From assembly GCA_965216315.1 (NCBI GenBank), contig CBDCFN010000016.1, positions 512,001-576,000 of the forward strand: a stretch of DNA of 64,000 bases, written 5' to 3'. The stretch's first letter is position 1. Each line of letters opens with the position of its first letter. Source of the DNA: a bacterium. Lineage in GTDB: Bacteria > UBA10199 > 2-02-FULL-50-16 > JAJFLM01. Made by a program: the position numbers and the translations under genes. Shown piece after piece: positions 35,533-55,793 of this stretch. Under the pieces are notes generated by a model. It worked only from the letters and a program-made list of their open reading frames with translations. It was not told where the DNA came from and searched no databases.

Positions 35533-35623
35533 AAATCCCTCCTAACCTCCCTTTCCTAAAGGGAGGGACCTCAAGTGGAGACCGTTACCTCCCCCTTTAA
35601 GAAAGGGGGACTGAGGGGGATTT
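35533..35623. repeat. Double-hairpin REP-like element at metH 3' end
   Basis: CCTCCCTTT-cct-AAAGGGAGG and TCCCCCTTT-aag-AAAGGGGGA within outer AAATCCCTC / GGGGGATTT. Confidence 0.75.
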
Positions 35624-38600
35624 AAACGCTAAAATAAGTACATTGCGGATGATGAAAGACGATGGCCGACACGGAGGCCTCTGGATCCATCATGAAGCCT
35701 TCCGTCAACTCGACACCGATTTCCTCAGGAGTCAGTAGCTCAAAGAGGATCTTTTGATCCGCTAATTCGGGACAGGCCGGATAGCCGAAAGAGTAGCGTT
35801 TGCCCTGGTACTTCGCCTGAAAACGTTGCTGCATCGTCATGTCCTTCGGATCGGCAAAACCCCACGCGCCGCGTATCTTGGCATGGAGCCATTCCGCGTA
35901 TCCTTCCGCGGATTCCAGGGCGAGAGCTTGGAGCGCGTGTGATTTGAGATAGTCTCCGGAAGCCTTCCAGCTTTCGGCCTGTTCCCGGATACCGAAGGCG
36001 GCGGTCGTGACAAAAAGGCAGATATTGTCGCTTATTTTTTCTTGTCGTGGTGCCGTGTAATCACTGAGGCAGAGTCCGTTTTCTTTGGCCTGGCGCGGAA
36101 ATTGAAATGACGCTACTTGTAGGCCCTCTTGGTCAAACAAGTTGAGCTCATTCCCCTCACTCGCAGCGCGGAAAAATTGATAAATAGCTTTTGGCTTAAA
36201 AAGGGCCTTCGCACAATCACGCTTGAGTTCTTCGACGATCTCAATAATCTCCAGGGCCTTTCGGCTTTCGTCAGTGTCTTTGAGTGCTGTCGTGCCTTCC
36301 TGTTGCCAGCGGTCGATGAGAGAACCCTTAATGCCTAAGTGGCGTCCATAAAGCATGCGCGGATTGATATAAGCCCAGATCTCTGCGATGGGCGTCCATT
36401 CCAGTAAGTGGCGCTTATAATCAGGAGGTGCAGGAATTTCGCTGCATAATTCAATCTGTGAGGAGCGCGTCGTGCTAATTTTTGTTTCGGTCTTTTTAAT
36501 CGGCGTAAAATCGATCTGAGCGACCGCCTGTGCCTCTTTAAGTTCTGATTTGAGAATATCAAAGGCCCGTTTGTCGCGGATACGCTTGGCGAGGTCGAGA
36601 CCATTCATGGCATCTTGTGCATAGACCGCGACACTTCCATAGGCCTTGGCAATCCGCGTATCGGTAAACTTGCGCGATAAAGCGGCCCCTCCGACCATCA
36701 GTGGTAATTCGATGCCGGCATTCTTGAGGTCTTCAGCAGTCACTTCCATTTGTTGAGCGGATTTAACGAGTAGGCCCGAGAGGCCGATGATATCCGGCTT
36801 GTGTTCCTTGACGGCCTTGATGATCTGCTCCGGAGGGATCTTGATGCCGAGGTTGATGACCTTAAAAGAATTATTGCTCAAAATAATATCAACTAAATTC
36901 TTGCCGATATCATGCACATCACCCTTTACCGTCGCGAGGAGGATAGTGCCTTGGGCGGCGGAATCGGCTTTTTCCATATGGGGTTCTAAATGAGCGACCG
37001 CGGCTTTCATGGCCTCCGCACTCTGCAGAACTTCGGCGACAATCATTTCATTCTTGTTGAAGAGTTGACCGACCTTATCCATGCCGGCCATGAGAGGCCC
37101 GTTAATAATCTCGAGCGGTTTCATTGTTTGCAGGGCTTCATCCAGATCTGCATAGAGCCCGTCCTTACTGCCCTCGAGTATGTAATTGCCGAGGCGTTTA
37201 TCCAGTGGCAGTTTGGCTATTTCCTCTTTGGGGACGATTTTTTTTGAACGAAAATAATTTGCGAAGGTGGCGATAGGATCATCTCCCCGGTTGTGCATGA
37301 GGTCATCGCACAATTGAATTTCCTCGGCAGGGATTGCCGCATAACGTTGCAGTAGTTCCGTATTGACGATAGCGAGGTCGAGACCCGCCTCAACACAGCG
37401 GTGCAGAAATACCGAATTAAGCACTTCGCGACCGGCTGTGGGAAGCCCGAAAGACACGTTGGAGATCCCAAGTACGGTTTTGCATTCGGGAAAATTTTCT
37501 TTGATTGAACGAACTCCTTCAATCGTTTCAATAGCTGATCCCTTGTATTGTTCGTCGCCGGTCCCGCAAGGGAAGACAAGAGGATCAAAATAAATATCGG
37601 CGGGCTTTACACCGTACTTATTGACTAAGAGGTTATAAGACCGTTCGGCAATCTCAAGCTTGCGCGCTCGTGTGACACCCATTCCTTGCTCGGGATCTTC
37701 ATCAATGGTTCCCACTACGAGGGCCGCACCAAATTGATTGGCGATCGGGACGACTTTTTCAAAGCGTTCTTCGCCATCTTCTAGATTAATAGAATTGATA
37801 ATCGCCTTGCCTTGAGAATAAGTGAGCGCCTTCGCAATAACCGCTTCATCCGTTGAATCAATCATAAGGGGGACACGGACCTTTTGAATGACCTGATCCA
37901 GGAATCGTTCCATGTCGAGCATTTCATCGCGGTCTGGGTTAGCGAGACAGACGTCAATGATTCCGGCTCCGCCCTTAAATTGACGGCGCGCGATCTCGCT
38001 GGCCTCTTCAAATTTTTCTTCGACGATCAGGCGCTTAAACTTACGACTGCCGATGACATTGGTCCGTTCGCCGACGAGGATGGGCCGCTTTTCATCTGAA
38101 ACCTCGAGATAGTCGATACCGGATAGGAAGGAGCCCTTAACCACTGGAATGGTGCGAGGCGGACAGGAGTCGGCGACCTGTCGTAAGGTTCGAATATATT
38201 CAGGCGTCGTGCCACAACAACCTCCGATCACATTGATCCACCCTGATTTGGCAAAATGTTCCAGATGCTGGCCCAACATTTCAGCGGATTCAAGGTAGTT
38301 GCCGTCGACATCGGGCAGACCGGCGTTGGGAACACAGGCGATCGGTACTTGTGCTAATTGGGCCATCGAGCGGATATGGTCGGTCATAAACTCAGGACCG
38401 GTAGCGCAGTTGAGCCCCAAGTATAAGAGGGGTCGATGATCTAGTGAGACGACCAGGGATTCGACGGACTGGCCGGCGAGCATCGTGCCCATCGGTTCAA
38501 TGGTTCCGGAGACGGCAACGGGGATGGACTCATGCCCCTCATTGAAAAGACGGTCGATGGCCAGCAAGCCCGCCTTGATGTTGCGCGTATCCTGCGCCGT

Positions 38601-39098
38601 TTCAAGTAGGAAATAGTCACAGCCGCCTTCGTAAAGGGCCTTGGCTTGGACGTAAAAATGTTCGATCAGCTCATCAAAAGTGACGCCACCGGTGACGCTA
38701 ATGGCCTTAGTGGTGGGACCGATGGAGCCCGCGACCCAGCGCGGGCGGTCCGCTGTGCTGAACTTGTCGGCGGCCTGCCGCGCCAAACGGACGGCCTCCT
38801 TATTTATTGCTTCGGTCTTGGTCTCAAGACCATATTCCGCGAGGACCAAGGGTGTGGCGCCGAAGGTGTCTGTCTCAACGATATCCGCTCCGGCTTCGAG
38901 ATAACTTTCGTGAACGCCTTGAATGACGTCCGGTCGCGTCAGGACGAGATTTTCATTGCAGCCTTCCAGGGCCTCGCCCCCAAAATCAGCTGCCGTGAGG
39001 GCGCATGTCTGCAGGGCCGTCCCCATCGCCCCATCGAGGAGGAGGATGCGCTCGTTGATGGCCTTTTTGAGGGCCTCTGTGCGGTTGCGACGATCCAT
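35622..39098 (-). CDS. metH: B12-dependent methionine synthase
   Basis: LDGAMGT, GLNCATG, GGCCGT, GERTN, GDVHDIGKN, RYSFGYPACP. Confidence 0.98.
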   Translation of the reverse strand: MDRRNRTEALKKAINERILLLDGAMGTALQTCALTAADFGGEALEGCNENLVLTRPDVIQGVHESYLEAGADIVETDTFGATPLVLAEYGLETKTEAINKEAVRLARQAADKFSTADRPRWVAGSIGPTTKAISVTGGVTFDELIEHFYVQAKALYEGGCDYFLLETAQDTRNIKAGLLAIDRLFNEGHESIPVAVSGTIEPMGTMLAGQSVESLVVSLDHRPLLYLGLNCATGPEFMTDHIRSMAQLAQVPIACVPNAGLPDVDGNYLESAEMLGQHLEHFAKSGWINVIGGCCGTTPEYIRTLRQVADSCPPRTIPVVKGSFLSGIDYLEVSDEKRPILVGERTNVIGSRKFKRLIVEEKFEEASEIARRQFKGGAGIIDVCLANPDRDEMLDMERFLDQVIQKVRVPLMIDSTDEAVIAKALTYSQGKAIINSINLEDGEERFEKVVPIANQFGAALVVGTIDEDPEQGMGVTRARKLEIAERSYNLLVNKYGVKPADIYFDPLVFPCGTGDEQYKGSAIETIEGVRSIKENFPECKTVLGISNVSFGLPTAGREVLNSVFLHRCVEAGLDLAIVNTELLQRYAAIPAEEIQLCDDLMHNRGDDPIATFANYFRSKKIVPKEEIAKLPLDKRLGNYILEGSKDGLYADLDEALQTMKPLEIINGPLMAGMDKVGQLFNKNEMIVAEVLQSAEAMKAAVAHLEPHMEKADSAAQGTILLATVKGDVHDIGKNLVDIILSNNSFKVINLGIKIPPEQIIKAVKEHKPDIIGLSGLLVKSAQQMEVTAEDLKNAGIELPLMVGGAALSRKFTDTRIAKAYGSVAVYAQDAMNGLDLAKRIRDKRAFDILKSELKEAQAVAQIDFTPIKKTETKISTTRSSQIELCSEIPAPPDYKRHLLEWTPIAEIWAYINPRMLYGRHLGIKGSLIDRWQQEGTTALKDTDESRKALEIIEIVEELKRDCAKALFKPKAIYQFFRAASEGNELNLFDQEGLQVASFQFPRQAKENGLCLSDYTAPRQEKISDNICLFVTTAAFGIREQAESWKASGDYLKSHALQALALESAEGYAEWLHAKIRGAWGFADPKDMTMQQRFQAKYQGKRYSFGYPACPELADQKILFELLTPEEIGVELTEGFMMDPEASVSAIVFHHPQCTYFSV

Positions 39099-39230: not shown

Positions 39231-39440
39231 TATATTAAGGAGTCATGCTGAGCGAGGGTGTGCCCCGCAGGATGCGACTTGAGTCCAAAAAAACAGCAAA
39301 AAAAGTGAATGTGGATAACTTGTCGAAATGTATGATTTCTATAGATTATTTTGTCCACATTCTGACGCAGCGCGCTATTGAAAGGAATTGTAAACGAATC
39401 CTCGAAACTTTAGGCCATAACTGTCGAAACTTGCGGAGCT

Positions 39441-42400
39441 ATGGTGCCTATAGCCTCATTTTCGAGCTCGCTTGCGTTGGGTTTTCCGGCGGCGACCGCC
39501 ACGTTTCAAGCTCCCATGCTCTTGGCATCGGGTCGTACGAACGATCCGATGACGGCGGTGATGGCGGGTGCCGGCTCGTTTACCAACTTGACCGAGCAGG
39601 GAGACGGGCAGGATCAACTGTCGTTGGGCAGTGATGCGAGCTCCGCCTTATTGGCCCAAGGAACGGGTCTGCGCGAAGAATCTCCCGTCCTTTCACTCCT
39701 GGCCACCGGTGCGAACACCGACCCTGAAATGTCTAGTGATGTGGATGGACCGTCGCTATCGGTTCAAAATACCGCTGCCATGACGGCGGCACCGTCACGC
39801 TTTATGGGGCGGGCGAGTCAATTTCTATCGACGATGGTTTTTATTGGGGCCATGTTCTGTGGTGGCTGCGGAAATGAGTCCACTACGGATAATCGTCCCG
39901 CTGTGACACGGGCGATGCCTGAAGGGATTAATCAGGCCGAGACCCTGCGTGAATCCGCTTTTATTTTTGGTCTCACGGATATGCCTTCCGGCGAACTTAA
40001 TGATCCCGCCACCGTTGATATAGCGATCTTAACCGGCGCGCCTTATCAGGCCTTTAAGGCCGACTTGATACGCGTTGATCCGCGCCTGGCTGCACAGTGG
40101 ACGGAAGTGGAAGCACTCGTCCAGCACCTAACTACTGCAGCGAATGTTCGCGACGGGAATCCTAATGTGGTGACACGCGCTGAAATGGCAACACGTCACG
40201 ATCCCGCGACCAACTCCACGGAATTTACCAATGCGGTTCGTACGCTACGCCTCGCACATAATATTGTTGCCGAATATGGACGGCGTGTTGAAGGCCGTGG
40301 AGCGGCGAGTGTTTCAAGACCGTCTGATCAATCGAGTGATCACGATTCACCTTTAGGCACACTACTCGGAATTTTAGCGCTATTGGCCCTGGCAGGGGCG
40401 GGATTCTATATCGCCCGTCAGCGTAAGACGATGAAGGGGCAGCAGCAAACAATCAATGACGGGAAGCAACGGCTCAGAGAGGCTGAGACCTTAATCAAGG
40501 ACTTAAGTCGGAAACAGGTTTTATTAGGCCTCGATCAAGGTGAGCAGCGGTACGAAGATATTGCCGCTCGTCTGCAAGCGGCAAAAGAGAAAAACGCCAG
40601 TATCAAGAAGTTGCAGGCGGATCTCACCGAAGTCGAACGTGATAATGTTGAACGTGCAGCCGCACTGCGCGAGTCTAATCGGAAACGCTATGAAGAGATG
40701 CGGGAAGAAGCGACTCGGGCGGCGGAAGAAGAGCGCGTTTATAAATCGCTGAAGCGCTATCGGGACTCGCTGCGCGAGCGGTTAGAGAAATTGCAGGCGG
40801 ACGAAGACGAAGATCCGGCGGTCACCGTTGAAAAACTCCGTGAGAAGATAGAAGAATTTAATAGTGCCATCAAGGAACGCGACCGCCTCCAAGCTGAATT
40901 GGATGGGCTCAAAAGCGACAATGAGGGCCTCGATCAGCAGAAAGTAAATCTCCAGGCGGAGATCGACCGCTTGCAACCGATCATCTTTGAGCTGCGCCGA
41001 GAGGTCGGGACTCTAGCCGGTCAGGCACGAGACCTAAGGGCAAAGAAGGAACAACAAGAAAGCGCGCGGGATGATTTTAACGAGAGTATTATCACGTTGA
41101 AATCCGAGCTTCATGCGTTGGGGCTCACCATTAACAGCCTTGGTACCGAGAAGGCCGAGCTTGAGCGGGAGAAGACGTCGCTGATTGCAAAACGAGACGC
41201 GGTTACTGCTGCGATCGCGCAATTAAGGGGAAGCATTGCGGAGCTGGAAGCGGCCTTGCCTCAGTTGGCAGCTGAACGCGGACGCCTGGATGAACAGAAA
41301 AGTCAATTAGAGCCTCAAGTTGAGGAACAGACCCGTCTGCGCAATGCGGCTCAGGAGGCTTACGATACGACGTTGAACACCTTGAATGGCCTCAAAGACG
41401 ACGAGCGCGATTTCACCACTAGAAAGACTGAATTGGAAGACGAGATTGGCGAGAAAGAAGGGTCAATCGAGAGTCTCAAGTCAACAATCGGTACGCTGGA
41501 GGCGCGGAAAAATACCTTAAATACGGAACTGACCGAGACCAAGGAAAAACATGATAAATTAGCTGAGGAAATACCCGGTATTGAACGCGCTACTCTAGAG
41601 GCTCAGGCGGCTCTCGCGGATCTGATCACGAGCCATGAAGATAAAGTAAGGATACGTGGTGAAGAAGAGGCAAAGGCCCAGGCCAAGTCGGACGCGGTTG
41701 CCGAGCAAGACAGAATTATTGGAGAACTTCGGGCCCAGATTGAACAAGATGATCTGAAGTATAACGCCCGTTTGGCGACGGCGCAGAGCGAGCGGGCACG
41801 GCGTGGCGCACTCCGACAGGAAATTGCCCGCATTGAAGCCGAGATTCGTGCTTATGAAATCGAAATGGATGGGGTCAGTGCGATTGACGCCCAACTCCAA
41901 GAGGCGACCGAGCGGAGTCAATATCTAGAAACGGCTCAGTTTGTAGATGATGAAGAAGCCAATGCGGCGAAGATTGAAATGAGTGAGTTGGCTGATCGTC
42001 TCGGAAGGTTGCAGCGGCGCCGTGAAGAAATGGATCTTGTCGCGCAGCGTGTTAGCCTCCGTGCCGAACTGGAACCTTTCGCGGCTGCGGGCGATCACGT
42101 TTCGGGTCAGGCTGTAGAGCTGCAGTTGAAGATTGATGCCCTGACGGAACGCATTTCCGCCGGCGAAGCCGGCCTGACGGCCCAGCGCGACGAGCTGAGC
42201 GCCATGCGGGGAACGCTGCGTAGCAGCAGAGACGAATTAGAGAGTGAACTTGAACGGCTGACAGAGACCGTCCGTCAGCTCAGCGGTGAAGTTGATGGCT
42301 TGAAGCAACGGCTTCGCGAAAAAAATGAACAATTGGAAGGGCTTCAGAGCGAGGATAAGGGCTTAAATGCGGATATCCGGAGTCGTGAGACGGATATCAG

Positions 42401-45400
42401 TCTGGCGGAGGGCGAGATACAGAGGCTCAAGGGAGTTCTCGAGCAGACCCAAGAGCGCAAGGAGGCTGCCGAAGCCGAGGCGCGTGCCAAGTTTGAAGAA
42501 CAGCAGCAGCTTAACGAGCAGATTGCAGCCGCACGGCAACGCGCCCAAGAAATTCATGAAGATATACTTCAAAAGGGTATCCAAAAGGCGGAGGCGGAAG
42601 CGGCTCGGGATGATTTGCAGCAACGCTATGCACAAGTGGAAAGTCAAGTCCTCGCCGTTTGGGAGCAGGTCACCGAAGTTTATGCAAACTACATGGAACA
42701 TCGCCGCTTCATTGAAGCGGTCTTGAGGCTTATTGCAAGAGTTGCGCGTCCGATCCAAGATGATGAGGCGACCCAGCCGGAACTCTACATAGAGGCCTTG
42801 GATGAACGCCTTCAGGAGGTTCAGCAGGTCATTGATCAGGTTGGTACGGCTGAGCATCGTCATGAGGATATGGTACGCGCCTCTGAGCAACTAGGCTCGA
42901 TGATCCAGCGAGTTGAGCAACAAGTCGTGACGATGGAGAGTGGAATTGGCTTGCTCACGGAAAAAGATCTGGAGCTCCAGAATCGCATTGCCGAACTTAA
43001 GGGTGAGATAGAGGAGTTTAAAGCGCATCGTGCTGAGGTCACGGAGCAGCGAGCCGAGCGCGATCGTTTGACTGCGGAATATCCCAATGAGCAGTATCAA
43101 AATGTTGATGAAGAGTTGACGGACTTGAGAAATCGCGTACCGGAATTACAAGGCAAGGCCAATCAGCTGGATATCCTCAAAGGTCAAATTTCTGGCATTG
43201 CCGAACAGTATGGTGATCTCGACAACGCTATTGCGCAGGAAGAAGCGCTGAAGCAAGAGGCGCAAGATGAATTAGATGAGCGGAATAGAAGGCTGGCGGA
43301 GCTTGATAAGAGCAAGGGAGAGTTAGCCGAGCAATCTGCTGCGGTCCAAGCGAGTATTGATGAGGCGGGGCAAGAGATAAAAGACAGGGAGGCCGAACTT
43401 GCTGAGGCCGAAGCCGAGCAGGAACGCGTCCGTGCCCAAATTACAGAACGGGAAAAAGCGCGTGACGAAGCGAACGAGGCGCTTGATGTCGTCCGCGCCG
43501 AGGCCGAGCGGGTTCAAGGACAGATTGAATATCTTAAAGGTGAGCTAGAAAAATTTCAGCAGAATCAACCGGCGTTGGTTGATCAGCATGCGCAGCTCCA
43601 TAAGGCCTTCCAAGTAATTACTTATATGACGCGACGGATGGGAGATATTCAATCGCAGCTAGAGGCCCTTCAGCCCATGTATCCGGATCTTGTCGATCCT
43701 ATCCTCGCGAGAATCAGCGAGCAAAGTGCTACTGATGTCGTGGATCAGGTGACGGCCTTTGAACTCTTGCTCCTGATTAATGCCTTGAATGCCGACATTG
43801 CCCGACTTTCAGTGACGACGGTGCGCGCCACGGGTGCGCAGATGATGCGCGGTGAGGTTGATGATGTCTATCAGCCTCCGATCGTTAAGGTCGCAGCAAC
43901 GCCCGATATGGGTGAGCTGGCGCAGACGGCGACTCAGGGAATGGGCCGCAAATACGCCGAAGATACGGTGACGCACGCCCATGATGATAACAGAAATCTT
44001 TATATACTCGACGTTGACGGGATGGGCGGGCACGAGAAGGGTGATGTCGCGGCCGAAATTGCGACCGAGCAATATACGCTGACGGCGTCCATTCACGGTG
44101 ATCCCATTGCCGCCTTGCGGGCTGCGAACACTTCGATGCGACAGACTTTTGCTCACAAAGGAGACAAAGCACCCGGGGCCTGCGCGGTTTCGGTTCGGAT
44201 TCGTAAACCGGAGCAGGCGGGGGGTGCCCATCATGCCGATTTTAACTGGCTCGGCGATACCCGCGCAATCGTGTTGCGGCGCAACGCTGCTGGCAAATGG
44301 CAGTGGCTCTATCGCACTGTCGATCAGAATATGGGCTTGGTTCATATGCAGGCGGGTGCCTTGAAGCCCGGGGTCGATTTTGAAGTCGGCGGCAAAGGAC
44401 TTGAGATGGCTCTGCTGACGGTTCCGAATAACAATGTCGTGATCAGTGCTTTGGGTCAAAAAGACGAACCAGACATTAAATATACCAAGGATGGTCACGT
44501 GCCGGCCGAGAACGATTGGGGGCGGAGAGAAGCAACTGAGTTTGCGGGCGGTGTTCCCTTGCAGCGTGGTGACGTAGTCCTGATGGGATCGGATGGCCTG
44601 TTTGGCAACTTTGGTAACATTGAAATGATCGCCAACTTAATTCAATATTGTGAGACCGCGGAAGAAATCATCCAAGTACTGACACGTGAGGCTCATGAGA
44701 GAATGGCGATCTTGCGGGAAGCAAAACGACATCTTAAAAACGGGGGCCGTTGGCCGTTTGAGCATCATGGGCGCTCGCTTTTCATTGATAGCAGCGGAAA
44801 AGTTTATGAAGAGGCCAATAGTACAAAGCCCTTTGATATTTTCAATATCGATAACTTCAGCGCGAGTGTCTATCTGCACAACCCGACCACGCCGCGGGCC
44901 CCGCACCTCGGTGCTGATGACGGTGCCTCCCCGGCCTTTAATGACGCCGTCACGGACCGCATTGCCCTGCCGACGCTCGAGCACAAGGGCAATAACCGTT
45001 ATGGTCTTACGATCCATAGTGGGACTCAAATAGTGGAGTTCAGACGCCGGACGGCGGATGAACAAGGAACGGGTTTCATTCAGCAAGGGAATAGGCTGAC
45101 GATCTATATTGATTCACCTAGAATTTCAAGGCAGGGCGAAGCGCGCATGATACGCGACGCCGACGGTGTCTACCAAATGCAGGATTTAGGCAAGGCGAAT
45201 GGCGTCCGCGTTTTTGAAGATGGGCAGCCGGTGCGCATTACGTCACATCAAAATTATCCGGTACAAGAGGGCGGTGTTTTCTTTGTCGGAGATTATCGCT
45301 TTGATATCGACAGGCTTCCGGAAGCTGTAGATGACGGCCCGATGGTAGAGATTGCGGTTGAAGAGCTGGAGCCCGTTGACGGTGTCGATCAGGTCGTCGG

Positions 45401-46775
45401 TGGGAGGCGCCCCCGGCTCCCGGCAGACCCCTCGGAACGTCTTACCCCGCAGCTAACGGGACCCATTTATGCCCGTTCACAGAAGTTAGCGCGGGAGATC
45501 GCTGCAACCCCAGAGAATCAGCGTAAAAATAATCCTCGTTGGGTCGGTATGTTGGCCGAGCGGGAAATTCTTGCCGAGATAGATCCACAAGTGACCTTTG
45601 ATCGCGGCCAGCAAGAAGGACGCAATTTTATTCGCATTCGTATTGGCGATGATGAATATGCCTTCTGGCCGGAGGACGCGGTGCAGATTACGCAAGCTTT
45701 GGAAAGTGCCGCATCCATCTTGACCGGTGCACGGCAGGAGCGGGCGCGCGAGATTCTGGCGGCGTTCAATCGTTATATTAAAGCCATGATGACTTCGGCC
45801 CGGCCGATATTAACAGACGAGCGTCGGGCTCAGCTACAACGGGCCGGCCTCACTCAAGCGGATCTCGTCTTAATTGAAGAGGCGGTCGGACAAAACATAG
45901 CAGGTCAATATGAGATCAAAGAGTTGATTGGCATGGGTCAACAAAGCCTGATCTTTCGGGCCTATGATCACGAAGAAGGTCAAGATGTTGTCGTGAGGCA
46001 GGCAGCTTTTTCTTATTCTAAGCTCGACAATCGCTACGCTCTCGCGGAGCATGAAAAGCGCCGGAAGCAGCTTGGTGAGTCTTTTCGAGCCCAGATCAAG
46101 GACCCGACTGGCAAGATGCCGGCGGCTATTAAAGCTATCGAAGCGCCGGCTATTATTCCAGCCGCACGACAATCAGAGCCTTTGTCAAAAGAACTCTATG
46201 TTATTGAAGAATATGTTAATGGTTCGACGATCAATGAGGTTATCCAGAGTCCCTTCTGGATTCGCATGCCGCTGGAGGAACGGGAAAGATGGCTGAAAGC
46301 TTGGATGGGTCAGTTTATCGAGTTTTGGGGTGCCTATCAACAGGCGGGTTATCATTATAGTGATATCAATCCCGACAACCTCATGGTTGATGACGAGACG
46401 AGCGGACTTCGCGTCGTCGATGCGGGGAGCCTCCGTCCTATTCAAAATATCTTCATCCAGGGGGGACCTCTTGCCTATACGCCGGGGTATACGACGCCGA
46501 AATTGCTTGAAATGATTAAGGGCCACAGCAGACGCAGTATGCAGACGAGCCCGAACTATCTCTATCCCATGCTCGGCAAGCTCATGCACCACATCTTGAC
46601 TGGAGAGGCCCCACAGCAAGCCGGTGTCATGCCGGATATGCCGGCGTTGAAAAACTCCGGCAAGGCCAGCTCGGGTGCGATTACCGTCATTGACCGTTTC
46701 TTGGCGATGGATGGAGCGACGGATATGGGGACCTATCGGAATGCGCAGGCGGCCTTTAAGCAGTGGCGCCCTTAA
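39441..46775 (+). CDS. Giant membrane-anchored coiled-coil protein with PP2C phosphatase, FHA-like and divergent Ser/Thr kinase domains
   Basis: TM ~40362-40412; E/Q/R/L heptads ~40420-43800; DGMGG, GDTR, SDGL, DN; ISR..DLGKANG; IGMGQQS, YSDINPDN, DAG. Confidence 0.85.
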   Translation: MVPIASFSSSLALGFPAATATFQAPMLLASGRTNDPMTAVMAGAGSFTNLTEQGDGQDQLSLGSDASSALLAQGTGLREESPVLSLLATGANTDPEMSSDVDGPSLSVQNTAAMTAAPSRFMGRASQFLSTMVFIGAMFCGGCGNESTTDNRPAVTRAMPEGINQAETLRESAFIFGLTDMPSGELNDPATVDIAILTGAPYQAFKADLIRVDPRLAAQWTEVEALVQHLTTAANVRDGNPNVVTRAEMATRHDPATNSTEFTNAVRTLRLAHNIVAEYGRRVEGRGAASVSRPSDQSSDHDSPLGTLLGILALLALAGAGFYIARQRKTMKGQQQTINDGKQRLREAETLIKDLSRKQVLLGLDQGEQRYEDIAARLQAAKEKNASIKKLQADLTEVERDNVERAAALRESNRKRYEEMREEATRAAEEERVYKSLKRYRDSLRERLEKLQADEDEDPAVTVEKLREKIEEFNSAIKERDRLQAELDGLKSDNEGLDQQKVNLQAEIDRLQPIIFELRREVGTLAGQARDLRAKKEQQESARDDFNESIITLKSELHALGLTINSLGTEKAELEREKTSLIAKRDAVTAAIAQLRGSIAELEAALPQLAAERGRLDEQKSQLEPQVEEQTRLRNAAQEAYDTTLNTLNGLKDDERDFTTRKTELEDEIGEKEGSIESLKSTIGTLEARKNTLNTELTETKEKHDKLAEEIPGIERATLEAQAALADLITSHEDKVRIRGEEEAKAQAKSDAVAEQDRIIGELRAQIEQDDLKYNARLATAQSERARRGALRQEIARIEAEIRAYEIEMDGVSAIDAQLQEATERSQYLETAQFVDDEEANAAKIEMSELADRLGRLQRRREEMDLVAQRVSLRAELEPFAAAGDHVSGQAVELQLKIDALTERISAGEAGLTAQRDELSAMRGTLRSSRDELESELERLTETVRQLSGEVDGLKQRLREKNEQLEGLQSEDKGLNADIRSRETDISLAEGEIQRLKGVLEQTQERKEAAEAEARAKFEEQQQLNEQIAAARQRAQEIHEDILQKGIQKAEAEAARDDLQQRYAQVESQVLAVWEQVTEVYANYMEHRRFIEAVLRLIARVARPIQDDEATQPELYIEALDERLQEVQQVIDQVGTAEHRHEDMVRASEQLGSMIQRVEQQVVTMESGIGLLTEKDLELQNRIAELKGEIEEFKAHRAEVTEQRAERDRLTAEYPNEQYQNVDEELTDLRNRVPELQGKANQLDILKGQISGIAEQYGDLDNAIAQEEALKQEAQDELDERNRRLAELDKSKGELAEQSAAVQASIDEAGQEIKDREAELAEAEAEQERVRAQITEREKARDEANEALDVVRAEAERVQGQIEYLKGELEKFQQNQPALVDQHAQLHKAFQVITYMTRRMGDIQSQLEALQPMYPDLVDPILARISEQSATDVVDQVTAFELLLLINALNADIARLSVTTVRATGAQMMRGEVDDVYQPPIVKVAATPDMGELAQTATQGMGRKYAEDTVTHAHDDNRNLYILDVDGMGGHEKGDVAAEIATEQYTLTASIHGDPIAALRAANTSMRQTFAHKGDKAPGACAVSVRIRKPEQAGGAHHADFNWLGDTRAIVLRRNAAGKWQWLYRTVDQNMGLVHMQAGALKPGVDFEVGGKGLEMALLTVPNNNVVISALGQKDEPDIKYTKDGHVPAENDWGRREATEFAGGVPLQRGDVVLMGSDGLFGNFGNIEMIANLIQYCETAEEIIQVLTREAHERMAILREAKRHLKNGGRWPFEHHGRSLFIDSSGKVYEEANSTKPFDIFNIDNFSASVYLHNPTTPRAPHLGADDGASPAFNDAVTDRIALPTLEHKGNNRYGLTIHSGTQIVEFRRRTADEQGTGFIQQGNRLTIYIDSPRISRQGEARMIRDADGVYQMQDLGKANGVRVFEDGQPVRITSHQNYPVQEGGVFFVGDYRFDIDRLPEAVDDGPMVEIAVEELEPVDGVDQVVGGRRPRLPADPSERLTPQLTGPIYARSQKLAREIAATPENQRKNNPRWVGMLAEREILAEIDPQVTFDRGQQEGRNFIRIRIGDDEYAFWPEDAVQITQALESAASILTGARQERAREILAAFNRYIKAMMTSARPILTDERRAQLQRAGLTQADLVLIEEAVGQNIAGQYEIKELIGMGQQSLIFRAYDHEEGQDVVVRQAAFSYSKLDNRYALAEHEKRRKQLGESFRAQIKDPTGKMPAAIKAIEAPAIIPAARQSEPLSKELYVIEEYVNGSTINEVIQSPFWIRMPLEERERWLKAWMGQFIEFWGAYQQAGYHYSDINPDNLMVDDETSGLRVVDAGSLRPIQNIFIQGGPLAYTPGYTTPKLLEMIKGHSRRSMQTSPNYLYPMLGKLMHHILTGEAPQQAGVMPDMPALKNSGKASSGAITVIDRFLAMDGATDMGTYRNAQAAFKQWRP

Positions 46776-47533
46776 CCGATCGTAATTTCCTTGATCATTC
46801 CATCTCGATGAAAACGAACTGCTGTTTGCGAATGGCTCCTGCGTCGCGAATGCGTCAAGAGCCGCATAACTTTGGCGAGCGAGAGTTTTCCATCCATATC
46901 CAGACAAACGGTGACACCCGCATGAAATTTATGACCTAAGATTTCGGTTTTGTTGGCGAGGACGATCGAGCGCAGTGAACCGTTATGATGAAACTCAAGG
47001 CAGGAGTTGGCAGCGGCGATAAGTACCTGCTTATTGAAACGGATTTCCATGGGTTCATTAATATGTACCCAAACCAGCTGACCTTGATTGGAGAAATGGA
47101 CGACGGTTCCGGCCGGGAAGCGGTAGCCGGCTATTTGCATGGCTTCGGCCAGAGTCGTTTCTTTGAGGATGCCATTGCGGTAAAACGAAACCAGACGATG
47201 TGCGATGAGTTTTTTGACTTGAGCGCAATTGGTTTTCAGTCGGGTATCGCTCGCAAGTGAGACCCAATCCAGCTGAGCGTCGGGAAAGAAGTAGGCGATA
47301 CTGGTGCCGGGGAAAGTATTCGCACCGATGCGAGTCATGTCCCCAAGCCAGATGGAGGTCAGCCGCCCCCGCTCCGTGTAGAAAATTTCCGAACCTTGAG
47401 GCAGCTGCAGACCATGGACATTCATGTCGGCATGCAGCCGTGTGCTAAAGGTTCGGGGGCTATGCACGAGCAAAGCCCTGTCCTTCGGGTCCGTTTCAGT
47501 GACCTCTAAGTCGATTTCGTTCGCCGCCCTCAT
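46772..47533 (-). CDS. Beta-repeat protein (MORN-variant/YwqK-like)
   Basis: Repeats of (F/L)PxGxx(I/V)xF...GxL; GGAGG RBS before ATG 47533. Confidence 0.65.
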   Translation of the reverse strand: MRAANEIDLEVTETDPKDRALLVHSPRTFSTRLHADMNVHGLQLPQGSEIFYTERGRLTSIWLGDMTRIGANTFPGTSIAYFFPDAQLDWVSLASDTRLKTNCAQVKKLIAHRLVSFYRNGILKETTLAEAMQIAGYRFPAGTVVHFSNQGQLVWVHINEPMEIRFNKQVLIAAANSCLEFHHNGSLRSIVLANKTEILGHKFHAGVTVCLDMDGKLSLAKVMRLLTHSRRRSHSQTAVRFHRDGMIKEITIG

Positions 47534-47570
47534 GGCGAGATTCCCCTCCAAATTCATAGCCCCTGCGCCT

Positions 47571-47723: not shown

Positions 47724-49379
47724 ATGGTGTATACAACACTCAGCCAAACGACTCTTCTTATGGGTCACACCCTCCCAATGCTCGCGTCTGCCGATCTGTC
47801 CGCAACGCAGCCGGCGCCAGTGCTTGCCGCACCGTCACAGTCATCACTCGCATCGACGTTGTTTCAGCGCTGCATCGCGCGCCCCCTCGTGGCGACGCAT
47901 ATGTTACTCAGTCCGTTGAGTTTCGCTGGCTGTGAAGACCGGGAAATTAAACCCGTTGTGTCGGCTCGGCCTGACAGTGTTCAATCCATTCAAAGCCCTT
48001 TAGAAGTCGATTCGAACGTTGTTCCGAAAGAATTGGCGGTTATCGGTGTCTTGGTCTTGCTAGGTACGGGCTTGATACTATTGAGAAAAAATTCTCAGCT
48101 GAGATCGGAGCTGAAGGCCAAAAATAGCGCGTTGCATGAGAAAAGCGAGGAATTAGAATCCATCCAGATTTCATACGCTAAGATGCGACGGCTATTCGCG
48201 AAGGTGAAGGATCGCGATAAGATGCTGGGTCTCTATCAATCCAAGTTGGATGTCGATGCTATCTCGGCTGAACTTCGAGATCTTGAGCGAGAGATTGCCG
48301 GCCTGCAGGAGTTAAAGGAAGAACGCTATCGCTTGAAAACCGAATTTGATGAGCTCACTTCGTTAAAGTCCGTGATGGAGTTTGATTGTGAGCGCTTTGG
48401 AACAGCGATTGAGAAAGTCGAGGACGAACTGGACGAGCTGGATGCAGCATTAAAGGTTGCCGAAAGCCGATTAAAACAACGAAAGGCCGAGTATAAATCT
48501 AAACAGCAAGAGCTAGAGAATGTTCGACAACGCAGAATCACGCCTCTTCGCGTAGCACTAGCTCCGGCACCGGAAAATCCGGAGCGGCCGGTTAGGAGAG
48601 AGGTTCGATATGATCTGCCGTTGGCACAGCGGAAACGGCAGGCAATTCCTCTTCTGTCAGTCCCCGTCCCGAAAGGGCGACGCGTGAACGTGCGGTTGCA
48701 TGATGGTTTTGCCGAATATGTTCGCAATAACGGGGCCGACGTTGAGATGAGTCGTGGTGTCGGAGTCAATGGTTTTTTTAACCTTGTTCCTAAAATAGGG
48801 TATCGATTTCTCCGTGTAAGCTCCTTTCACTCGCATGATTGGAAAGCATTAGATCTTGTCTCGCTTGATGTGATTTCGGAGCCTATCAATCCGGAGGCTC
48901 ATGGTGTTTGTGATGGTGACTTTATCCTCATCAAGGACAAGGAGGGGGGACTCGTTGGTGTCGGTACTGTCAGTAGCGTCGGTGTAAGTCGCTTTAAGGC
49001 ACTCGAAGGAGCAGCTGGATCGTCGTCAGCAAAAATTTCATCGTCGGCTCTGAGCTCACAAAAACCACCGCAAAGCCAAAAGCCGGTATCACCGCAAACA
49101 ACTTTCGATATACTACGCCCTCCTGGAAAAACTGCCGAGCGGTTTGGAGCAACGGTCGAGCGGCTTGATGACGGGAAATATGAATTCCGCATCCGAGTCT
49201 ATGAAGGGGAGATTTTGATCTGGGGAGATCGGCGGTATCAGGGTCCCGCTATTCGTAAGCTTGCCGTCAGTCGTGCAACTGAAATCAAGATACAACCGTC
49301 TCGTGGCAGGCGGCTATCATTTACGCTGCGGCCGCCGAAAACCGGGCAGCAAGCCAGCATTGAGAAACACCCGCGGTAG
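47724..49379 (+). CDS. Membrane-anchored coiled-coil protein, N-terminal half resembles the giant protein
   Basis: TM LAVIGVLVLLGTGLILL followed by coiled coil; segment similarity to 39441 ORF. Confidence 0.75.
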   Translation: MVYTTLSQTTLLMGHTLPMLASADLSATQPAPVLAAPSQSSLASTLFQRCIARPLVATHMLLSPLSFAGCEDREIKPVVSARPDSVQSIQSPLEVDSNVVPKELAVIGVLVLLGTGLILLRKNSQLRSELKAKNSALHEKSEELESIQISYAKMRRLFAKVKDRDKMLGLYQSKLDVDAISAELRDLEREIAGLQELKEERYRLKTEFDELTSLKSVMEFDCERFGTAIEKVEDELDELDAALKVAESRLKQRKAEYKSKQQELENVRQRRITPLRVALAPAPENPERPVRREVRYDLPLAQRKRQAIPLLSVPVPKGRRVNVRLHDGFAEYVRNNGADVEMSRGVGVNGFFNLVPKIGYRFLRVSSFHSHDWKALDLVSLDVISEPINPEAHGVCDGDFILIKDKEGGLVGVGTVSSVGVSRFKALEGAAGSSSAKISSSALSSQKPPQSQKPVSPQTTFDILRPPGKTAERFGATVERLDDGKYEFRIRVYEGEILIWGDRRYQGPAIRKLAVSRATEIKIQPSRGRRLSFTLRPPKTGQQASIEKHPR

Positions 49380-49395: not shown

Positions 49396-50520
49396 TCACG
49401 TAACGCCAAGAGGGCGCGCAACTTCCGGTTTTCTCACTTTCCAGATCCAGCCATCATAGAGAAAATGCAGGAGTGATGTGCCGGAATAGTAGACGATGTA
49501 GAAATCCGTCCCGCGCAGGTTGAGGAGGAGGTAATAGGTCAAACCCATCCCCGCAATGAGAAGTGGGGCGCCTTTGAGGGCGCTACGAAAACAGAATGCC
49601 GCGACGTCACGGTTGTTCCGGTCTTGATACTTTCCATGGCCGTAGAGGTGCACAAAGGCGATGTACTCAACGGCATGGGCCATGCCGAAACAAAGATAGC
49701 CGACGATTGGTCCATGGATGACAAAGATCGCCAAGAGGGTGAGAGTCGAGATCAGGAACGTCCAGCGAGGCACTCTTTGCCGCCAACTCAGTTCCGCTGC
49801 CAGTTCATTGCGGAGCCACCAAACGAGTGCGATCAATGCTGTGATCCCGACAATTGTTGGGATCAGCCAGAGGAGGAAATTTTGGTCAACAAAGCTGAGA
49901 GCCTTCATCACGAAACGGGCTTTACCAAGCGTTGCGAAGCTTGGCCGCTGATACAGAGCCGCTCCACAAATGATGACCACAACGAATGACCAGAGCAAAA
50001 ATAAATCACGCCGACCGTGGGCGTGTTGCTCGATACCGCCCTTGCTGCGTCCGGCGTAGACCCGGAGTATGCCATAACGTTGCATAATCACGTGCCAGAT
50101 ATTCCAAAAGGCGACGATGATGATAATAATGGTCCAAGTCCAGGGGAGATCACTGATTCGGCTCCCGATTAAGAGAGCAAAGATGAGCAGTGGTGACAGG
50201 ATGTAGTCACGGATGCGCTGCGACAAGATCTGGCGGTCTCCATAGACGAGTAATAAAGTGTAATGCCGGTGGATGTACGTCAGGCCGAGTACGACGACCA
50301 TGGCCAGGCTCAAGTTTTGAAAAAAGGCTACGCGTTCAGTGTGGCGAAGCGGGATGGGGCCACTCATGTCGAGACCCCAGACGATCCAGAAATAAAAAGG
50401 AAGCCAGCAGAAAGCCAGGCAACTCAGATCGAAAATGGGGTTTACGAGCCAGCGGGCCGATGGCTTATTCGCGTCCATGTTTGTGGCGGTGTTCCAGGAT
50501 ACGTTTGTAGCAAAAGACAT
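49396..50520 (-). CDS. Polytopic membrane protein with His motifs, unknown function
   Basis: Many TM segments; HRH, WHVIMQ, HAVEY, HFLYDGWIWK. Confidence 0.75.
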   Translation of the reverse strand: MSFATNVSWNTATNMDANKPSARWLVNPIFDLSCLAFCWLPFYFWIVWGLDMSGPIPLRHTERVAFFQNLSLAMVVVLGLTYIHRHYTLLLVYGDRQILSQRIRDYILSPLLIFALLIGSRISDLPWTWTIIIIIVAFWNIWHVIMQRYGILRVYAGRSKGGIEQHAHGRRDLFLLWSFVVVIICGAALYQRPSFATLGKARFVMKALSFVDQNFLLWLIPTIVGITALIALVWWLRNELAAELSWRQRVPRWTFLISTLTLLAIFVIHGPIVGYLCFGMAHAVEYIAFVHLYGHGKYQDRNNRDVAAFCFRSALKGAPLLIAGMGLTYYLLLNLRGTDFYIVYYSGTSLLHFLYDGWIWKVRKPEVARPLGVT

Positions 50521-53641: not shown

Positions 53642-54649
53642 CTATTTGCCTAAGAACATTTTAAAGGGGTTGCCGGTGAAGATCAGCCCCACGACGATCC
53701 AGCAAAAGGCGCGGACGCGTCGCAAGAGGACGATGGCAATTCCGGCGACCGCGCCAAGCGGGCCAAACGTAATGGCGAGCATGCCGGCAAAAGCCATCTC
53801 CATGACACCAAAGGCGCCGGGAAGAAAGCAAAACAAAGCGCTGACTAGTGGGGCCAGGGCCGCTAAGAGAAGCGCCCAAGAGAGGGTGAGATCCGGAATC
53901 AGAGCTGAACCGAGCAGGTAAACCTCAGCGACCATAAGGCCTTGGCAGATTAAATGAAGGATAAGGCATTGATAGAAGGTCCCACGTCTCTGGTTGTAAA
54001 AATTGAGGAGCAGACGGTCGTATTCATCTAAGGTGCCGCGTACCGCCGGGCTCTTGCAGCTGCAGGGCAGTCCGCAGGTTGGGATTTTGTCGACCAGCGC
54101 GCTAAAAAAGCCGCTTTTTGCTGTGCGGATCGCGACGACGCAAAAAATACCGATGACAGCCAGCAGAGCGGGAACGACAATGCGAACGACTTGAGGCAGG
54201 CTCGGGGTGTTGAGAAAGGCCACCATCAATCCGACCCAGACGAAGATCCCCAATGCCAGCATGTGGACGGTACGGTCAGTGATGATCGATTCGGCTCCGG
54301 ACTTAGCTTCGTATTTTTTGAGCAGTTGGTGGCCTTGGACCGCGTCGCCGCCGACCAAGGAGAAGGGACTCAGATTGCGTAAGGAGTTGCCGCTGGCCTC
54401 AAGGATGAACAAACTCCAAAAAGAGGCCTTGCTGGGTCCGAGTGCAAATTGCCATGCGAGGCCTTGCAGGAACGCATAAAAAAACGAGATAAGCAGGACC
54501 ATTGGGAAGACGGCGACGCCGTCCAAGCTGTATTCGGCCACCAAGCCGGCGTCTTGGCTGTAAATAAACCATACCAAGAGAAGAACGCTCAGCAAAAAGA
54601 ACGCGAGTGATTTCCAGGGCAACAGCTTTGAGATATTCAGTCCTTGCAT
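53642..54649 (-). CDS. Lysylphosphatidylglycerol-synthase-TM (UPF0104, flippase-like) membrane protein
   Basis: P..GGD, DR, PGAFGVME, RR..W pattern in ~8 TM protein; AAGGAG RBS. Confidence 0.7.
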   Translation of the reverse strand: MQGLNISKLLPWKSLAFFLLSVLLLVWFIYSQDAGLVAEYSLDGVAVFPMVLLISFFYAFLQGLAWQFALGPSKASFWSLFILEASGNSLRNLSPFSLVGGDAVQGHQLLKKYEAKSGAESIITDRTVHMLALGIFVWVGLMVAFLNTPSLPQVVRIVVPALLAVIGIFCVVAIRTAKSGFFSALVDKIPTCGLPCSCKSPAVRGTLDEYDRLLLNFYNQRRGTFYQCLILHLICQGLMVAEVYLLGSALIPDLTLSWALLLAALAPLVSALFCFLPGAFGVMEMAFAGMLAITFGPLGAVAGIAIVLLRRVRAFCWIVVGLIFTGNPFKMFLGK

Positions 54650-54719: not shown

Positions 54720-55793
54720 CTAAAACACTTCGTCGATGGCGTCTGAGACCAGCTGCCAGGCCGTGCTGTCGGTGCGTAGCGAGCTCGCCTGTTCCAGGTG
54801 AATAAAGCGACCATTAAATCCGGGGGCTGCATCGGTGCATTCATCGGAGCTGCCATTGGTATAGCGTCCCTGGACATTGGTTGTGCCGCAGAGGCTGTCC
54901 GGATCCCCCATCTTGTTACAGCTAACAGCAAAGTCCGGGTCACTGAGGCTATCATCGATAGCCGTCGCCAACTGATTGACGAAGGCGAAGGCGCCGACAT
55001 CTGTTGTGCTTCCATTAGATACGATGGCGCGGGGATCGGATGCATCCGCGCTGAAGCCGTGAAGAGAAATGAATTTTACAAAGTCGACGGTATCATTGGC
55101 CGCTTTATGCGCTTCGTGGAAGAAATTGTCAGTCGCATGGGCGACATCCGAGATGCGGTAGGGACCTTCGGTTCCACAGGCATCGGTTGTTCCCGAGCAG
55201 CTCGATTCAGCGGAATTGGCGCAGCGATGCGTGCCTGCGATAAACAGGGCTTTCGCACGCATATTTTTAAAAATCAGGAGTCCCTCATCCAGGGTGTTTT
55301 CGTCGAAGAGGGGATGGGGCACTTCAATGACAAGTTGTGAGTCGGTCGTTTCATTGATGAGAAACGTGCCTCCCCCATTGCCGCTCTTATCCGTGAGCGC
55401 GATGATTGTATCCCCGTTTTCACTAAAATTTTGTTGTTCGTAATTAAGAGCATCAAGGGTAGCCGTGCTGACGGCGGTTGCCCCGAGTACATCACGGACC
55501 AGCTGATTAAAGTTGGTTAAGTCATCACCGGAGGGTGCTGAAAAGGCATCGCTATCCGCACCGGGAATGGTCAGTCCCGAAATAAGCGCGTCGATGCTGT
55601 CGACCGTGCTGCCGCCACCCGAATCACCGGATCCACTCGAACCACCATTGTCAGAACCGGAAGCGCTGGGATCCCCTGGGCTCGACACTTCACTATCTCC
55701 CACAAAAGTGGGGCCATCCTGGCTGCTGGTGCAGGCCGAAAAGGCGCCTAGTATAACGATGGCTGAAACAATGCTGAAAAACTTAATAATCAC
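54720..55793 (-). CDS. Lipoprotein with putative Zn-hydrolase-like domain (GTG start)
   Basis: Lipobox FSAC, Ser/Gly linker, EVPHP, SDVAH, SLHGF, HLEQ, paired Cys; GGAGG RBS. Confidence 0.65.
   Translation of the reverse strand: MIIKFFSIVSAIVILGAFSACTSSQDGPTFVGDSEVSSPGDPSASGSDNGGSSGSGDSGGGSTVDSIDALISGLTIPGADSDAFSAPSGDDLTNFNQLVRDVLGATAVSTATLDALNYEQQNFSENGDTIIALTDKSGNGGGTFLINETTDSQLVIEVPHPLFDENTLDEGLLIFKNMRAKALFIAGTHRCANSAESSCSGTTDACGTEGPYRISDVAHATDNFFHEAHKAANDTVDFVKFISLHGFSADASDPRAIVSNGSTTDVGAFAFVNQLATAIDDSLSDPDFAVSCNKMGDPDSLCGTTNVQGRYTNGSSDECTDAAPGFNGRFIHLEQASSLRTDSTAWQLVSDAIDEVF

Follow-up and report, generated by a model that had tools for sequence, protein, structure and literature searches.

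A giant coiled-coil protein of a UBA10199 bacterium joins PP2C-like, FHA-fold and kinase-like domains in one chain

The giant reading frame and its three C-terminal domains

In a 64,000-nucleotide stretch of the genome of an uncultured UBA10199 bacterium (hereafter the window; contig CBDCFN010000016.1 of assembly GCA_965216315.1, our G000:C16:512001-576000), one open reading frame (ORF) runs unbroken for 7.3 kb on the forward strand (39441-46775, +) and encodes 2444 amino acids plus a stop, a product that we call the giant protein (P0001). At the far end of a long coiled coil, this single chain carries three domains of Ser/Thr phosphorylation signalling: a divergent PP2C-like phosphatase module, an FHA-fold domain and a kinase-like domain that is probably a pseudokinase or a weak kinase. 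The ORF starts at an ATG with GGAG closely upstream, a GTG following at 39444; the public copy of the protein has 2443 residues and lies on a 2.4-Mb contig. The host genome measures 2.96 Mb and is 98.3% complete.

The gene derives from a metagenome-type assembly, and the public runs that carry the stretch comprise two samples of one study, with no RNA data set listed among them. They are not all independent, since the assembly itself may have been built from some of them. Both circumstances leave room for an artefact, whether a contig joined from unrelated pieces or a degenerating pseudogene that happens to read through. Against this, a 16,329-nt contig from run X3, in the second sample, spans 39300-46571 with 25 substitutions and with neither an indel nor a joint, so that every domain junction is bridged and the gene is not chimeric, a concern that had been raised with the original prediction of this architecture from the DNA letters and their translation. 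Contigs from run X1 are identical to the window over 39300-44814 and 44870-46819, and a 115-nt piece closes the gap between these intervals. The strain differences between X3 and the giant ORF fall in its C-terminal third, and because 20 of the 25 are synonymous and 5 non-synonymous, they point to purifying selection on the gene. Together with the uninterrupted frame and a syntenic orthologue of similar length in another genus (P0040, 2483 aa, in genome G001), this makes an artefact scarcely credible. All 25 differences lie within 44693-46293, with none in 39300-44692, a clustering that may mean that the contig path mixes two strains, or that a recombination boundary falls inside the gene, close to where the PP2C-like module ends.

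The first of the C-terminal domains (aa 1487-1818; 43899-44894, +) is a module of the PP2C/PPM fold with two large family-specific insertions. Its Pfam scores lie below threshold, at 18.5 bits for PF00481 (cut-off 20.3) and 13.6 bits for PF13672 (cut-off 24), and because sequence profiles alone were marginal, we collected homologues and predicted structures, obtaining two models of the C-terminal region with predicted local distance difference test (pLDDT) values of 86.4 (PP2C and FHA) and 85.2 (kinase-like). In VIA comparisons the PP2C model returned PP2C-fold entries throughout ranks 1-37, among them Stp1, tPphA, MspP, SaSTP, PppA and PstP, with Z 26-27.6 and a root-mean-square deviation (rmsd) of 2.2-2.5 Å over 220-240 residues; Foldseek gave E 1e-11 and a template-modelling score of 0.82, normalised to the target, and a profile of the family matched tPphA at E 1.9e-7 with the signature motifs aligned. 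These motifs are YAED (1505-1508), DGMGG (1526-1530), GDTR (1605-1608), GSDGL (1716-1720) and IDNFS (1803-1807), and the metal-ligand motifs among them are complete (D1508, D1526-G1527, D1718, D1804) and conserved across the family. Judged by these residues, the module looks like a catalytically competent phosphatase.

Behind it lies an FHA-fold domain (aa 1839-1963; 44955-45329, +). Directly below these PP2C-fold entries, VIA ranks 38-50 are 13 consecutive FHA entries (Z 8.6-9.4; 89-106 residues, model positions 372-502), and the FHA structures matched include MDC1, EmbR, CEP170, DgcB, ArnA, CT664, GarA and Rad53. The segment scores 14.0 bits against PF00498, below the cut-off of 20.7, and is homologous to Pfam-positive FHA domains in two relatives of the giant protein: that of P0009 (E 1e-8; 27.4 bits), a 1104-aa protein whose record is possibly truncated, and one in the orthologue P0040 (E 1e-4; 35.1 bits). 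A direct BLAST comparison of the FHA-like piece with the FHA domain of a further relative, P0007, was not significant. The phosphothreonine-binding motif of FHA domains consists of GR, SxxH and NG, as given in the accessible part of PMC1262709; in the giant protein the corresponding segments are present (ISRQGE, 1895-1900; GKANG, 1917-1921), with Arg1869, Ser1896 and Asn1920-Gly1921 kept, the His replaced by Glu1900 and the Ser of the GSxNG loop by Lys1918. Between this domain and the next, an unassigned linker with a small helical and beta subdomain (aa 1966-2147; 45336-45881, +) is modelled with pLDDT 43-88 per 10-residue block and contains helices and a 3-strand sheet.

The chain ends in a kinase-like domain of the Hanks fold (aa 2148-2444; 45882-46772, +), identified by VIA, Foldseek, Pfam and motif alignments. 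VIA aligns the model with PknB (Z 21.0, rmsd 2.9 Å, 247 residues), and Foldseek gives E 1e-13 with template-modelling scores of 0.77-0.79, normalised to the target. Against PF00069 (Pkinase; cut-off 31.7) the isolated C-terminal piece scores 32.5 bits and the whole protein 26.7, while the scan of the genome gave 29.8 bits for the domain and 34 with neighbouring pieces; the best sequence match is PpkA (E 4.3e-7). A GMGQQS loop, HYSD2308INPDN2313 and VD2327AGS supply the kinase motifs, and in the family alignment, numbered by the isolated piece, D318 is invariant and D299 and N304 are nearly so. All three domains thus correspond to segments that the original prediction had delimited, the PP2C domain at ~43940-44880, for which every quoted motif is present and structural similarity reaches Z 27.6, the FHA-like segment at ~45100-45310 and the kinase fold from 45909 to the end.

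One residue of the kinase-like domain departs from the catalytic pattern. Arg2186 (VVVRQ) occupies the position of the beta-3 (VAIK) Lys, a site at which P0040 and 28 of the 31 aligned relatives carry Lys and which aligns with the Lys of 'IAIK' in PpkA. Its codon, AGG (45996-45998, +), reads AGA, also Arg, in the strain variant; because that change is synonymous, Arg2186 is a fixed trait rather than an error. Exchanging the beta-3 Lys for Arg is the standard way to inactivate a protein kinase, and since Arg here takes the place of an otherwise invariant Lys, the supposed writer of the protein is probably a pseudokinase or a weak kinase. In its available text, an atlas of bacterial Ser/Thr kinases (bioRxiv 10.1101/2025.01.12.632604) likewise defines pseudokinases by loss of the VAIK Lys and names cases of Lys-to-Arg replacement.

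Stalk, membrane anchor and predicted topology

Some 1100 residues of coiled coil (aa 331-1440; 40431-43760, +) separate these domains from the N-terminal region. The heptad signal of this stalk is 0.52, compared with 0.298 +/- 0.015 in 30 shuffles, and it contains only 14 prolines, in agreement with the long heptad-like stretch originally described; matches to coiled-coil models of SMC and Rad50 stay below threshold. Given a rise of 0.1485 nm per residue, the stalk would be about 165 nm long if it forms one continuous rod. We also considered a stalk that folds back as a hairpin instead of forming an extended dimer: a break near its midpoint (aa 852-894, with Pro879) would suit such a bend, but P0040 has no matching central break, and a two-copy prediction for aa 880-1103 returned a score of 0.00, which speaks neither for nor against self-association. 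The suggestion that the stalk acts as a ruler is weakened by P0009, which has the same anchor and only ~240 aa between its transmembrane helix and its PP2C-like module.

The protein begins with a low-complexity region (aa 1-125; 39441-39815, +) of 22% Ser and Thr and 26% Ala and Gly, predicted to be disordered and cytoplasmic and collinear with P0040 and P0009. At its extreme N terminus, GFPAA...LLAS belongs to a pattern, GF(P/A)A...LA(S/A), that is kept in all three proteins. A first hydrophobic segment follows (aa ~126-143; 39816-39869, +), which by hydropathy and homologue alignment would be a weak transmembrane helix or signal-anchor; the segment ending in CGGC that had originally been noted is thus present, with a Kyte-Doolittle maximum of just 1.38, compared with 1.73 in P0040 and 2.21 in P0009. 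The Gly-Cys that closes it (aa 138-143; 39852-39869) is invariant in the three proteins, and lipid modification of this Cys in an internal signal-anchor is possible. In P0009 the site resembles a lipobox (VTGC), yet it lies more than 100 residues from the N terminus. A classical lipoprotein start at Met122 is disfavoured: no ribosome-binding site precedes Met122, and the three homologues align collinearly across the 120 aa ahead of it.

Between the hydrophobic segments lies a domain of ~160 aa (aa 144-304; 39870-40352, +), predicted to be periplasmic and conserved in P0040 (E 1e-27) and P0009 (E 5e-7), in which all three proteins share the motif D-G-N-(P/A)-N-x-x-(S/T)-x-x-E. This motif bears a resemblance, and only that, to calcium-binding loops. 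Searches with the N-terminal 345 aa found no Pfam family, no meaningful sequence match in the PDB and no usable match in the Atlas. The outer domain is followed by a strong transmembrane helix (aa 305-326; 40353-40418, +) with Kyte-Doolittle values up to 2.13 and then by RQRKTMK, the next 19 residues having a net charge of +4. The sole window above 1.6 on this scale spans aa 302-326, LGTLLGILALLALAGAGFYIA, and confirms the helix originally placed at ~40362-40412. Because basic residues stand before the first hydrophobic segment and after the strong helix, flanking the presumed cytoplasmic sides, we place the N terminus inside, the ~160-aa loop outside and the C terminus inside. In this simplest topology, read from hydropathy and charge, the stalk and the enzyme-like domains would be cytoplasmic.

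Relatives, the orthologous locus and precedents

Searching 1.84 billion representatives exhaustively with HMMER gave 259 matches at E<=1e-3, of which we considered the best 150. These relatives split into two separate families, one PP2C-like and one kinase-like, and none of the 149 matches other than the giant protein combines the two in one chain. Word-indexed homologue searches with aa 1440-2444 recovered only the protein itself, and those with the kinase piece nothing at E<=1e-10. A profile search of metagenome contigs yielded 13 loci, among which one close relative sits on a 1.9-kb contig and the others are 23-28% identical; one larger metagenome locus (L033) is ORF-poor DNA.

The two families differ in their settings. 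Kinase-like relatives are mostly stand-alone proteins of ~310 aa. The PP2C-like module occurs mostly in long or giant proteins, of up to 7998 aa among the matches listed, and in genomes of the same class the open frames that contain it range from 2,000 to 17,560 aa. The longest of these is in genome G022, with the module at C8:44765-45781, and a second genome, G027, carries the module in frames of 2765, 3629, 3973, 5218 and 5913 aa on contigs C1, C2, C3 and C5; the same-class genomes with such giant frames measure 2.6-3.3 Mb. Several of 19 homologues scanned with Pfam combine the PP2C-like module with a true FHA domain in one chain, and all 18 of 18 loci with the module are labelled UBA10199, 'Deltaproteobacteria bacterium' or 'uncultured Pseudomonadota' metagenome-assembled genomes. 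In this lineage the module acts like a cassette that giant proteins carry again and again.

Among 93 species genomes of the class, which make up the whole set for the phylum, the N-terminal anchor is confined to the host genome and its family-mate G001, and so is the kinase-like subfamily. In G001 they meet in P0040, the positional orthologue of the giant protein, which likewise lies between metH and a MORN_2-like gene. P0040 has the same anchor, transmembrane helix, ~1100-aa coiled coil and C-terminal kinase-like domain (E 2e-35), but no PP2C-like module; its place is taken by four FHA domains, three of them Pfam-positive (48.8, 35.1 and 33.8 bits) and the fourth below threshold, and the beta-3 Lys of P0040 is kept (VIVKQ). 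Overall identity between the two proteins is 25%, against 76% for the adjacent metH. P0009, in turn, comprises the anchor, a short stalk, the PP2C-like module and an FHA domain. The anchor and stalk are thus a common chassis, and the reader, eraser and kinase-like cassettes mounted on it have been swapped.

The three activities at issue are familiar from other systems. In the threonine-phosphorylation pathway of the type VI secretion system (T6SS), PpkA, PppA and Fha1 are three separate proteins with the same three activities and regulate the secretion machine; PppA (6jkv, Z 26.3) and PpkA (5hnv, Z 20.6) are among the closest solved structures to the domains described here, but those proteins are separate, and the host genome has no match to TssC. 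In mycobacteria, PknA and PknB work with the membrane-anchored PP2C PstP and the FHA readers FhaA and FhaB, and the MviN pseudokinase serves as a phospho-dependent docking site for FhaA. PknB (Z 21.0) and PstP (Z 26.2) are again top structural matches; the mycobacterial components, however, come from separate genes, lack a coiled-coil stalk and include active kinases. In plant KAPP, a membrane anchor, an FHA domain and a PP2C share one chain, and the FHA domain brings the phosphatase to phosphorylated receptor kinases. This protein provides the working model that we favour for the giant protein, although KAPP is eukaryotic, has neither a coiled-coil stalk nor a pseudokinase, and implies no homology beyond the domain families.

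Partial combinations have also been described in bacteria. Chains of PP2C and kinase in Pseudomonas and Deinococcus, and of FHA and kinase in cyanobacteria, appear in the accessible text of Krupa & Srinivasan (2005; PMC1262709), and a 2025 census, in its available portion, counts Pkinase, FHA and TPR with the domains that most often accompany bacterial PP2Cs (PMC12088040). As far as these texts extend, the published composites resemble the giant protein in placing a PP2C N-terminal to a Hanks kinase in one chain, but join two canonical domains, with no PP2C-FHA-kinase triple, 1100-aa coiled coil or Lys-to-Arg kinase seen. Abstracts on type VII secretion mention pseudokinase-FHA partnerships. 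Like the giant protein, the bacterial ActPs2 family and eukaryotic KSR1 have Arg for the VAIK Lys in a kinase-like fold, for which the available text of bioRxiv 10.1101/2025.01.12.632604 proposes a scaffold or ligand-binding role; ActPs2, by that account, also lacks the HRD Asp and the DFG Asp, whereas the giant protein keeps both Asp residues and the Asn. The combination of PP2C, FHA and kinase on a long coiled coil in one chain was not found in full-text literature searches, which leave subscription journals uncovered, and within the same coverage the literature found on phylum UBA10199 consists of metagenomic surveys. The original claim that the architecture was unrecognised therefore stands for the full combination, which recurs in none of the other best matches, and not for its two-domain parts, since PP2C-kinase and FHA-kinase fusions are published. 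We conclude that the giant protein is an unusual fusion of well-known signalling domains and no new kind of system.

Possible roles and neighbouring genes

Beyond the giant protein, the host genome contains 17 other Pkinase matches over the cut-off (many in frames of 1000-1700 aa), 11 FHA matches and 2 canonical PP2Cs. TssC (PF05943) was not found in this 98.3%-complete genome, a control search of E. coli being positive. The giant protein therefore sits in a rich Ser/Thr network and is not tied to a T6SS.

The reading we prefer, although we regard it as no less apt to fail than to hold, is that the giant protein serves that network both as a membrane-tethered phosphatase and as a scaffold for docking. 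It would be an inner-membrane protein with a disordered cytoplasmic N terminus and two hydrophobic segments bracketing the ~160-aa outer domain, leaving a remainder of ~2100 aa in the cytoplasm, in which the ~1100-aa stalk would end in the three domains. Phosphate would come in trans from active kinases that other loci of the genome encode; the FHA domain and the pseudokinase might then recruit phosphorylated partners or, alternatively, latch onto a phosphosite of the giant protein itself, and the PP2C would subsequently remove the phospho-mark. Several observations weigh against such a role. Phosphothreonine binding is not assured, because the FHA domain lacks the conserved His and the loop Ser, and both this domain and the PP2C miss their Pfam thresholds. 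Residual or atypical kinase activity is possible, because the Gly-rich loop, D2308, N2313 and D2327 are kept and Lys-to-Arg is a conservative change. The first hydrophobic segment is weak, in a topology drawn from hydropathy and charge only; and the length of the stalk is not kept in P0009, though that record is perhaps truncated.

The original prediction had envisaged a self-contained switch that erases, reads and writes phosphorylation. Its eraser survives with motifs intact and its reader is partly degenerate (Glu1900, Lys1918), but its writer is called into question by Arg2186. For the switch to operate, the Arg2186 domain would still have to be active, with the FHA domain reading and the PP2C erasing its own or neighbouring marks, which we consider rather unlikely: the substitution is of the standard inactivating kind, and Arg is fixed in two strain variants at a site that is Lys in nearly all aligned relatives. 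The retention of every catalytic-loop and metal-binding residue other than the beta-3 Lys, under purifying selection, and the Lys-bearing, catalytic appearance of the close kinase-like family keep the idea alive, and while PP2C-kinase fusions taken as bifunctional are on record in the accessible parts of PMC1262709 and PMC12088040, the atlas, in its available text, classes loss of the VAIK Lys as pseudokinase. A more speculative proposal, and in our view an improbable one, is a phospho-regulated cytoskeletal tether, in which a coiled coil of 80-165 nm holds a self-resetting phosphothreonine latch at a set distance from the envelope. Here a partner kinase would phosphorylate a site in the linker or the pseudokinase, to which the FHA domain would bind, and the PP2C would clear the mark; if true, phosphorylation would switch the shape or the partners of a large intracellular structure.

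The chance is slimmer still that the giant protein is an exported or injected effector, akin to a polymorphic toxin, with an N-terminal signal, a filamentous stalk and swappable enzyme cargo directed at the phosphoproteins of another cell, although export had been suggested at the outset. The conserved motif in the disordered extreme N terminus, the C-terminal cassette that varies between orthologous loci, and the position of the PP2C-like module at or near the C terminus of many giants of the lineage, in frames of up to 17,560 aa, would all fit such an effector, as would the structural matches to the Legionella PP2C-fold effectors Lem3 and SidD (Z 22.8 and 17). But the protein has no N-terminal signal peptide, and the RQRKTMK cluster after the strong transmembrane helix, with the basic residues before the first segment, is as in a resident inner-membrane protein and would place the enzymes in the cytoplasm. 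No same-strand immunity-like gene lies downstream, where the next gene is convergent and conserved, and no TssC was found in the genome; an FHA domain and a pseudokinase suit endogenous signalling in a cell with 17 other kinases, and housekeeping PPM phosphatases of bacteria, rather than effectors, head the structural matches. Lem3 and SidD also illustrate that the fold can serve other chemistry, such as removal of phosphocholine or AMP, and a divergent family that lies under the Pfam thresholds and bears two large insertions might do the same or be a non-catalytic binding module. We judge this very unlikely, as the motifs agree with classical PPM phosphatases and the best matches (Stp1, tPphA, MspP, PstP, PppA) reach Z 26-27.6, against 17-22.8 for the effectors.

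In work on bacterial Ser/Thr signalling, kinases, phosphatases and FHA proteins are usually treated as products of separate genes, and a natural triple fusion on one membrane-tethered stalk shows, in the manner of a Rosetta stone, which parts cooperate. The giant protein also offers a compact object for asking how a pseudokinase and an FHA domain steer a PP2C. Its R2186, in a domain whose other catalytic residues are all kept, is nature's version of the 'kinase-dead' mutation made in the laboratory, and the Lys-bearing P0040 allows a direct comparison. Two divergent subfamilies barely seen by Pfam are brought to light as well: the PP2C-like cassette of giant proteins, with its two insertions, and the kinase-like family with YxD and DAG motifs. 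This interest is bounded by an uncultured organism and by parts that are textbook domains.

The genes around the giant ORF are partly conserved with it. Upstream and divergent lies metH (35622-39098, -; TIGR02082, 1185 bits), which shares 76% identity with its counterpart ahead of P0040 and so identifies the two loci as orthologous. Downstream and convergent, overlapping the end of the giant ORF by 4 nt, is a gene for a 261-aa repeat protein (46772-47557, -) with a MORN_2-like Pfam match below threshold, which is syntenic in G001 and 44% identical to the gene downstream of P0040; with its internal repeats, this protein is a possible partner of the giant protein. Next, a 551-aa protein without a family match (47724-49379, +) has a coiled-coil segment at aa ~120-270, and a search of G001 with that query found no counterpart. 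Three further ORFs of 335-374 aa, at 49396-50520, 53642-54649 and 54720-55793 (all -), have no Pfam family; the first, of 374 aa, is conserved on the same G001 contig as P0040 at 55% identity. At the other end of the giant gene, a 7-bp inverted repeat (GCTATGG...CTATAGC, 39438-39454) encloses the ATG and is followed by a T-rich run, resembling a terminator; in the mRNA this repeat might make the start codon inaccessible.

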